The notes below the pieces were generated by a model, which was not told the origin of the DNA, ran no database searches, and saw only the letters and a program-made list of their open reading frames with translations. Made by a program: the position numbers and the translations under genes. A stretch of DNA of 64,000 bases from Neocallimastix sp. 'constans' (Eukaryota). Positions 46,959-49,230 of the stretch are shown one piece after another. Numbering within the stretch: position 1 is the stretch's first letter; each line of letters starts with the position of its first letter. Location: contig JBODTK010000014.1 of the NCBI GenBank assembly GCA_050613775.1, forward strand, positions 1,178,001 through 1,242,000, given 5' to 3'.

Positions 46959-47909
46959 TGGTAGACTCGGGGTTGATTCGTATGGATTTAAAATCAAGCA
47001 GGGGGGACGGGTATTACCCTGCTTTGATTTTAAATAAAAAAAAAATTTCTTTTTATTAAAAATTATTTATTATTTATTAATATAAAATTTTATTATTTAA
47101 AGTACACATATTTAATTTTTAAGAAATATTTACAATATTTATATTTTTTTATGAATTTAAAGTATAATTAGTTGTTTATAATTTAAGTAATTTTATAGAA
47201 TTATTGAGTTAATTTTATATCAATAATTCATTTTTGTTTTAATTTTTATAAATATAATAATATAATATTCAAATATAATTTAATTAAAAATAATTATAAA
47301 ATAAATATATAGAAAATAGTTTTTACTATTTTCTTTGATATTTTTAAGTTAAATAAATTGTTTTTAAAGATTAATATAATAAATTTAATAATCTTTAATT
47401 ATTTTAAATAATACTTGTAATTATTTTCAAAAATAAAATAAAATTTTTATAATATTTAATTAATAAATTTGATAATATTTAAATAATAATTTTTATAATA
47501 AGTAATAATTTTTAATAATAATTTTTAATAATAAATTTAATTAATAATCTTAATAATTTTATAATAATATTTAATAGTTATAATAAATAAATTTTTATAA
47601 TAATATTTAATTAATAATTTTAATAATTTAGTATCTTAAAAGTATAATTTTAATATTTACAATTGTATTTTAATATATACATATATTTAATAATATAACA
47701 ATAAAGTAATTAATTAAAATTGATTTACATTATTTACAAGTTAAAATTAATTTATATCAAAATAAATTAAATTTTATTATTAAGTTTAGGTTATCAAGAA
47801 TATAGGAAAGTACAATTTAGTAAAGAATTATTAATAATAAAATAAAGGTTATTAATTTAGTAAAGAATTATTAATAATAAAATAAAGGTTATTAATTCAT
47901 TCTTTACCA
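46959..47909 (-). mobile_element. Solo LTR O (TSD CGAA)
   Basis: TGGTAGA...CATTCTTTACCA flanked by CGAA. Confidence 0.85.
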
Positions 47910-47913
47910 CGAA

Positions 47914-48695
47914 TGTAAGAAACTATAATTATTTGTAAAATAATTATAATTTCTTTATTTGATTATTTATCTATTACATAATTTATACATTCATTCATTA
48001 AATTAGTAATTATTTATCAAGTTAATATGTATTTGTACATTTAATTATAATTTTAATTTAATTAAAAATTTTCTTTAAATTTACTTAGTATACATTTATT
48101 TTATTCAATTAATTATAAATTTTATTAATTTCTATAATAATAAATTAATTATTTAATTATTATTTTTAATTAAAATTTGAATTAACTTATTCGGACTTTA
48201 AAGTTTTTTATTTTCTTATTAAAATATAAATTAATTTTATCGGACTTTAAGGTTTTTTCTAATTTATTATATTAATAAATTGGTTTTTCCTTAAAGAACT
48301 TATCTAGTTTTTTCTTCTAATCTTTTTCTAGATAAGATAATTGTTAAGATTAGAAAACCTTTTAAATTATTATTTTATATAAATTTTTATTATTTAATTT
48401 TTCGTATAAATAGCTATTAATTTCTCTAAATTTTTGAGAAATCAAGAGTTATTATTATATAACAAGTATTAATAAATATATAATAATAATCAATAAAATC
48501 TACAAACATTTTCAATAAGTGTTCTTTTATTTTGTGTTGTTTATTATATTTGTTTATAATAAACTCTTCTCTGTTAAGATAAGTTAAAATTTTCTTTATT
48601 TTTTCTAATTGTTTTCTTATTTTCTCAACTTGATGTTAGTATCAGGTTGTAGTAAATAATTTTGTTATAATAAATATTATAATGAAATTATTACA
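47914..48695 (+). mobile_element. Solo LTR C' (5-bp TSD ACGAA)
   Basis: Inverted copy of C; ACGAA at 47909-47913 and 48696-48700. Confidence 0.9.
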
Positions 48696-48701
48696 ACGAA
48701 C

Positions 48702-49230
48702 TGTTGAGGTTCATATTAGAAAAGGAGTGTGAACATTAAATAAATAGATAAATTAACTAACTACTAAATTACACTAAAAGAATTTATTATTATACATTAT
48801 AAATTTTATTTAAAGAACTATTATTAAAAATATTTATTATTTATAAATTATATAATTATTTTATTGTTAAAAATAACTTTATTAATATTAATATTTATTA
48901 TTATAACAATATGGGAAACCTTTCAATTATTATTCCTATTTCATTATCACTACTATTTCTACTATTTCTTTTCTCAGAAAGGCCCCCTTCATAAAATAAT
49001 ATGGATAATACATATTTTATATTATTTAATTACATTATTAAAACCAATCATATGAATTAATTAATTACATAAATTTAATATTTAAAATAATAAAATATAA
49101 TTAATATAAAAAAAATTATTATATAGAATATAAGAAAATTATTAATATTAAAGAATATAATAATATATTTTTATATAATAAATTATTAAAAATTTAATTA
49201 AAAATATCATTATTATTCTATTCTTTATCA
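48702..49230 (-). mobile_element. Solo LTR Q (TSD GAAC)
   Basis: TGTTGAGGTTC...ATTCTTTATCA flanked by GAAC. Confidence 0.85.

Follow-up and report, generated by a model that had tools for sequence, protein, structure and literature searches.

Ty3 of Saccharomyces cerevisiae inserts within 1–4 nt of the Pol III start site via TFIIIB (PMC5911963). The ends of Ty3 mimic the start-site motif, of which TCAACA is a common form in yeast (PMC6673722), and the C-terminal chromodomain of its integrase is described as the ruler (10.1101/2021.07.27.453949). Tj1 of Schizosaccharomyces japonicus inserts 1–10 bp upstream in a single orientation (PMC4600332). DGLT-A of Dictyostelium has no C-terminal extension of the integrase and reaches tRNA genes by contact between RNase H and Tfc4 (PMC5006619, PMC6101501), and several related families are reported to target tRNA genes in one genome (PMC5006619). 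In Drosophila, tandem elements separated by a preserved duplication have been reported (10.1101/158386). Our search of mostly non-subscription literature returned no account of LTR stacks in Neocallimastigomycota that are specific to a site or directed at tRNA genes.

The window analysed here is a 64,000-nucleotide stretch of Neocallimastix sp. 'constans' (contig JBODTK010000014.1). It is very AT-rich, with 10–35% GC per 2 kb, and contains remnants of copia and Ty3/gypsy elements, including a frameshifted Ty1/copia element at 14922–19400 and further degenerate copia and gypsy remnants at about 4750–13850. A perfect (TAAAA)65 array at 22503–22827 is possibly an assembly feature, and a 528-aa minus-strand ORF at 23344–24930 has an internal repeat and no Pfam match.

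Between 41,693 and 63,365, the LTRs of about ten families of Ty3/gypsy type lie end to end with one reused target-site duplication as the sole spacer, in the order X, A, F, B1, D, E, C', G, B2, B3, B4, H, I and L, the last of which extends beyond 63,365 (Table 1). Unit ends in this right-hand stack are TG...CA throughout, except for A, which ends with TA, and 3–6 letters lie between neighbours. When 17 units were aligned in both orientations, only A0/A and C0/C1/C2/L1 scored above locally shuffled controls, indicating about ten families in the right stack, with the solo units assigned to the Ty3/gypsy type from termini and duplications alone. The LTR termini are conserved among these otherwise unalignable families, with a TGRTAAAGAAT-like right end and a TGKTAWGG-like left end. 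Duplications of 4 bp are made by K and by families A, B, D, E, G, H, I and M, and duplications of 5 bp by F, C and L only.

Table 1. Stacked units, nested elements, flanks and junctions in the window. Junctions are written as left LTR end, spacer and right LTR start, with the letters read directly.
Feature	Positions	Strand	Description
Left stack A0-C0-K-C1-C2-M	32913..41680	.	4-bp/5-bp offset as in right stack
K	34544..39109	-	Ty3/gypsy gag and H2C2/rve integrase, PBS and PPT; RT/RNase H region deleted
X	41693..42591	.	LTR-like; termini like those of D in inverted order; flanks AATA / CGAA unmatched
X/A junction	42591		CA, CGAA, TG
A	42596..43383	-	solo LTR, 4-bp class, CGAA register, TATTA end on + strand; oriented by means of the PBS next to copy A0
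A/F junction	43383		TA, CGA, TG
F	43387..44091	.	solo LTR, 5-bp class, TACGA on both sides
F/B1 junction	44091		CA, TACGAA, TG
B1	44098..45509	.	solo LTR with expanded minisatellite, CGAA register
B1/D, D/E and E/C' junctions	45509, 46954, 47909		CA, CGAA, TG each
D	45514..46954	.	LTR-like, CGAA register
E	46959..47909	.	LTR-like; final 4-bp insertion of CGAA register
Left ACGAA duplication of C'	47909..47913	+	last base of E plus CGAA
C'	47914..48695	.	solo LTR, 5-bp class, at the register change; 97% substitution identity to inverted copy C1
C'/G junction	48695		CA, ACGAAC, TG
Right flank of C'	48696..48701	+	ACGAA duplication (48696–48700) plus C of the original CGAAC site; last four letters are the left GAAC of G
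G	48702..49230	.	LTR-like; first 4-bp insertion of GAAC register
GAAC junctions	49230, 50145, 51067, 60869, 61923		CA, GAAC, TG each
B2	49235..50145	.	solo LTR, GAAC register
B3	50150..51067	.	exact mosaic, left = B4, right = B2
B4	51072..60869	.	solo LTR split by nested element N
N	51981..60818		nested in B4, ATTA duplication
T	52432..60609		full-length Ty3/gypsy inside N, ATAT duplication
H	60874..61923	.	LTR-like, GAAC register
I	61928..62888	.	LTR-like, GAAC register
I/L junction	62888		CA, GAA, TG
L	62892..64000	-	C-related LTR (62892–63365), then a minus-strand purine tract and internal DNA that continues past the window end

The 4-bp class uses CGAA up to E and GAAC from C' onward, where G is the first 4-bp unit, and in both registers the 5-bp class starts 2 nt earlier. 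This offset agrees with the preliminary description and is given by TACGA at F and ACGAA at C'. The CGAA letters, which had been assigned to everything left of 47914, are correct back to 42592, but the second stack further left uses GCAG/ACAG. The GAAC junctions from C' onward also read as claimed, but the CAGAA assignment for L comes from its 3-nt left spacer only, as the right duplication of L falls beyond the window. A single shift holds for the right stack, whereas across the window the register changes more than once. The motif YCACGAATG has 4 matches compared with 0.08 expected, and YCAGAACTG has 6 compared with 0.05 expected, 5 of them in the stack and 1 at 17318 within a copia ORF; for each motif, 0/100 shuffles reach the observed count. 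The geometry is constant while the spacer letters differ between stacks (GCAG, ACAG, CGAA, GAAC), indicating that the target is a position and not a fixed sequence, which is the mode of site reuse that characterizes targeting of Pol III start sites.

The spacers of the left stack are, in order, GCA, CAGCAG, ACA, CAACA and CAACAG with a terminal ACAG, corresponding to a GCAG register followed by ACAG. Two duplications in this stack carry one-letter mismatches (C0 TAGCA / CAGCA; K GCAG / ACAG), so this stack may be of greater age or may have arisen by recombination between two loci. The left flank of A0 is a primer-binding site and carries no duplication. The right end of M is separated from the inverted unit X by 16 letters (41677–41692), ACAG followed by 12 A-rich letters, where a lost gene and a recombinational join are both possible. 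The unit X itself is likely a recombinant or has lost its left flank.

K is the sole stacked unit with coding DNA and is a Ty3/gypsy element, whose named gag and integrase homologues come from Neocallimastix and Orpinomyces, as expected for DNA of an anaerobic gut fungus; K-clade gag proteins of Neocallimastix include ORY60313.1 and KAG4081870.1. Its deletion corresponds approximately to residues 518–971 of the pol of a related contig, L006, and its LTRs differ at 8/494 sites (1.6%). The K-like full-length element in L006 has the same primer-binding site and an integrase 80% identical to that of K. The K integrase aligns with Ty3 Gag-Pol residues 1111–1418 of 1547 and ends 31 residues past the match, which leaves no room for the Ty3 C-terminal chromodomain, and no Pfam match to a chromodomain was found in K. 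Judged from PBS and PPT, the U3 ends of A0, K and L all face right. The sequence TCAACA spans the K/C1 junction and is also found at the right end of M.

The left 378 bp of B3 are identical to B4 and the right 540 bp to B2, with 0 differences in each part and a breakpoint near 50,500–50,545. B3 is therefore the product of unequal crossover or of assembly duplication and no independent insertion, leaving five independent GAAC insertions (G, B2, B4, H and I). The nested elements N and T, with their ATTA and ATAT duplications in AT-rich DNA, lie outside the site targeting. T encodes a 360-aa gag and a 1446-aa pol in overlapping frames, with the order RT-RNase H-integrase and an integrase 49% identical to that of K. 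Its LTRs differ at 1/703 sites (0.14%), and T is apparently intact and very young.

Insertion histories were simulated and scored on 12 junctions, with B3 and the nested elements left out. An anchor on the right with one 1-nt shift just before C' reproduced 12/12 junctions, compared with 5, 9 and 10 of 12 for the same anchor with no shift, a shift before E and a shift before G, respectively. A left anchor reproduced 0–3 of 12, a score that rests on wrong 4-bp spacers, with junctions touching 5-bp units unscorable there because the order broke. Growth anchored on the left was rejected on this score and because it predicts CGAT/GAAT spacers where CGAA/GAAC are read. The claim that F, C1, C2 and L are younger than their left neighbours is borne out, as the right duplication of F carries the unusual TA of A and the spacers expected of left anchoring are absent. 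With no errors allowed, a model in which each insertion keys on the end of the newest left LTR predicts CACGA for C' and reproduces 5/12 junctions. The CACGA argument of the preliminary description thus excludes that model, but a version with one slip at C' gives 12/12, as does a model in which the 5-bp elements arrive late and key on the TG of the right neighbour. Each surviving model needs one event. C' is accordingly no proof of an external landmark: the proposed growth at the right end from such a landmark accounts for all junctions, but so do these two rivals, and the proposed 1-bp change in spacing fits as only one among several single-event explanations. After every 5-bp element (C0, C2, F and C'; 4/4 such junctions), the next 4-bp element skips exactly 2 duplicated letters, and the right-anchor model alone needs no special rule for this skip. 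Perfect segregation of the registers was considered as a statistic of polarity and rejected, because spacer reuse alone produces such segregation; that the shift never reverts is likewise no evidence of polarity, since every model with reuse of the resident spacer leads one to expect it. The right-hand stack is real and specific to a position, its growth did not proceed from the left, and it carries one heritable 1-nt register change.

Divergence was compared between copies of the same family, although most families have one copy in the window. B1 and B2 differ at 7/647 sites (1.1%), and B1–B4 and B2–B4 at 15/648 and 16/652 (about 2.3–2.5%), the B4 figures being inflated by a misaligned 3-bp indel. 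No left-to-right age gradient is visible among the B copies (B1, B2 and B4 compared pairwise), and B1, which lies left of the shift, is no more diverged than B2 or B4. The divergence of A0/A is 4.3% and that of C1/C' 2.8%, and the growth of the stack seems to fall within a few percent divergence. Pairs of LTRs contain 2–9 gap runs per 494–784 aligned sites compared with 6–34 substitutions, and among B copies indels are about as common as substitutions (3–9 gap runs per pair). The frequency of indels suggests that a 1-bp slip in an A-rich leader would be plausible.

ARAGORN found 0 tRNA genes in the window, and Rfam over the window gave one sub-threshold miRNA match and one match near X (E 4.9), with no family. 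No A-box/B-box pair was found in the window, where two B-box matches each occur without an A box, and no Pol III element was found to the right of the left stack, in the only 12 bases between ACAG and X. Alignment with gag identified 3 loci in prokaryote genome bins and at least one locus in the 17 of 64 parts of the metagenome contigs covered, on a contig that equals L006 in length and match position. Related contigs (L006, L007, L008 and L050–L058) are fungal-type retrotransposon contigs in prokaryote genome bins labelled Bacilli and Methanosphaera, which likely reflects binning contamination. Screening of 15 related loci, including one duplicate (L008 = L051), gave no tRNA and no stack junction, and none of the related public contigs showed the young (right) end of a stack. 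The junction pattern had 0 matches in 3/3 genome bins and 5 in viral contigs, the latter taken as chance; the B/K LTR-end pattern had 0 matches in metagenome contigs, and no locus was confirmed when viral contigs were scanned with proteins. An LTR end of the L family lies inside a K-clade gag gene (L051:1-76), and degenerate C-family LTRs are found outside the stacks at about 21109–22083 and 1845–2835, indicating that the 5-bp class is not strictly targeted.

The locus is probably the result of stacking like that of Ty3, Tj1 and DGLT-A at a Pol III (tRNA-type) start site, belonging to a putative gene that would lie right of the window. The LTR stack would be built by successive integrations, all at the same distance from a landmark of the host on the right, with each intasome presumably tethered by TFIIIB/TFIIIC. 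Integrases of two classes would make 4-bp and 5-bp staggered cuts at a constant offset, older units would be pushed leftward by every new insertion, and recombination between LTRs would turn most units into solo LTRs. The change from CGAA to GAAC could then go back to a single event immediately before C', in which either 1 bp was inserted between the site and the gene or the start site was reset. The use of one and the same nucleotide by unrelated LTRs suggests that a host factor is involved. The Pol III reading is favoured by the fit of the right anchor to all junctions with no extra rule for the step from 5-bp to 4-bp elements, and by the two-letter skip, which is what a downstream ruler predicts. 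It is also favoured by the common U3-right orientation of A0, K and L, comparable to the fixed orientation of Tj1 (PMC4600332), and by TCAACA at the K/C1 junction and the M end, given that this is a common start motif in yeast (PMC6673722). Counting against a Pol III anchor are the lack of a tRNA, Rfam family or A/B-box pair in the window, the lack of an age gradient among the B copies, the K integrase with no room for the chromodomain ruler of Ty3, the C-family LTRs outside the stacks together with the L-type end in gag, and the mismatched duplications of C0, K and X.

The equal fit of two gene-free models also counts against the Pol III anchor and leads to a different account, in which the integrase keys on the resident LTR end, or on a protein there, each insertion recreates the target, and one off-by-one insertion (C' or G) reset the register with no host gene involved. 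Both versions of this account, the single slip at C' and the late 5-bp class, reproduce the junctions, the conserved termini of otherwise unalignable families would suit it, and double insertion at a preserved target is reported to yield tandems separated by a duplication (10.1101/158386). The account has to add an ad hoc +2 rule for the step that follows a 5-bp element, or else give the 5-bp elements a history of their own, and ordinary AT-rich DNA surrounds N, T and the C copies outside the stacks. To our knowledge, no LTR retrotransposon inserts at the flush ends of LTRs unrelated to it, and we consider self-targeting unlikely. Rather more doubtful is polar growth from a right-hand landmark of another kind, such as a bound protein, a repeat unit or a chromatin boundary. 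The junction logic would be identical to that of the Pol III model, no Pol III element follows the left stack, and the K-like element in L006 abuts on its U5 side a repeat of about 270 bp that is neither LTR nor tRNA. However, L006 exposes only the side away from the supposed landmark, and the single-nucleotide-precise LTR targeting described in the accessible texts is all at Pol III start sites (PMC5911963, PMC5006619, PMC4600332). The exact B4/B2 mosaic in B3 and the unmatched flanks of K, X and A0 would be accommodated by a stack made mainly by ectopic recombination or mis-assembly joining LTRs of different loci. Such an origin is very improbable, as the ten unrelated families of the right stack carry matching relayed duplications, which recombination or collapse cannot make between non-homologous LTRs, and the 5-bp copies contain letters of the neighbour itself (TA in F).

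We tentatively propose, as a picture that may well prove too elaborate, that anaerobic gut fungi harbour a guild of ten or more Ty3/gypsy families, comprising two integrase classes without the chromodomain ruler of Ty3, that would dock on one host complex with single-base precision. Each target locus would grow as a polar, CRISPR-like tape of solo LTRs, in which the order of retrotransposon bursts and even shifts of 1 bp in the geometry of the promoter would be recorded. Should the landmark prove to be a Pol III gene, Neocallimastigomycota would join the hosts of tRNA-type targeting, and both the precision and the number of co-targeting families would exceed those in the accessible examples. 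Insertions could then be placed in chronological order at many loci, and the locus would point to a natural safe-harbour integrase for use in fungi described as being without gene-insertion tools (PMC5796279). If self-targeting is true instead, the LTR end would be a self-renewing target, which would be more surprising.

The elements resemble Ty3 in the Ty3/gypsy domain order of K and T (gag then pol, with the integrase last, together with PBS, PPT and TG...CA LTRs), in the reuse of a site to nearly a single base independently of its sequence, and in the presence of solo LTRs. In contrast to Ty3, which makes 5-bp duplications and carries a C-terminal chromodomain, K and families A, B, D, E, G, H, I and M make 4-bp duplications and the K integrase has no room for that domain. 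At this locus, one site is common to about ten families that fall into two duplication classes, and the Pol III gene is putative. Because the K integrase stops short of the Ty3 extension, it would at best work like DGLT-A or Tj1 and not like Ty3 proper. K resembles DGLT-A in having no C-terminal extension of the integrase, and A0, K and L resemble Tj1 in their fixed orientation. The insertion windows reported for DGLT-A and Tj1 are 10–20 bp compared with one base here, the host phylum differs, and the accessible descriptions of these elements contain no stack of 13 units from about ten families. The P, jockey and R1 tandems of Drosophila share with this locus the preserved duplication between elements and the subsequent expansion by unequal exchange (compare B3). 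They are, however, same-family dimers driven by sequence preference, whereas the families stacked here are unrelated and the spacer letters vary by stack.
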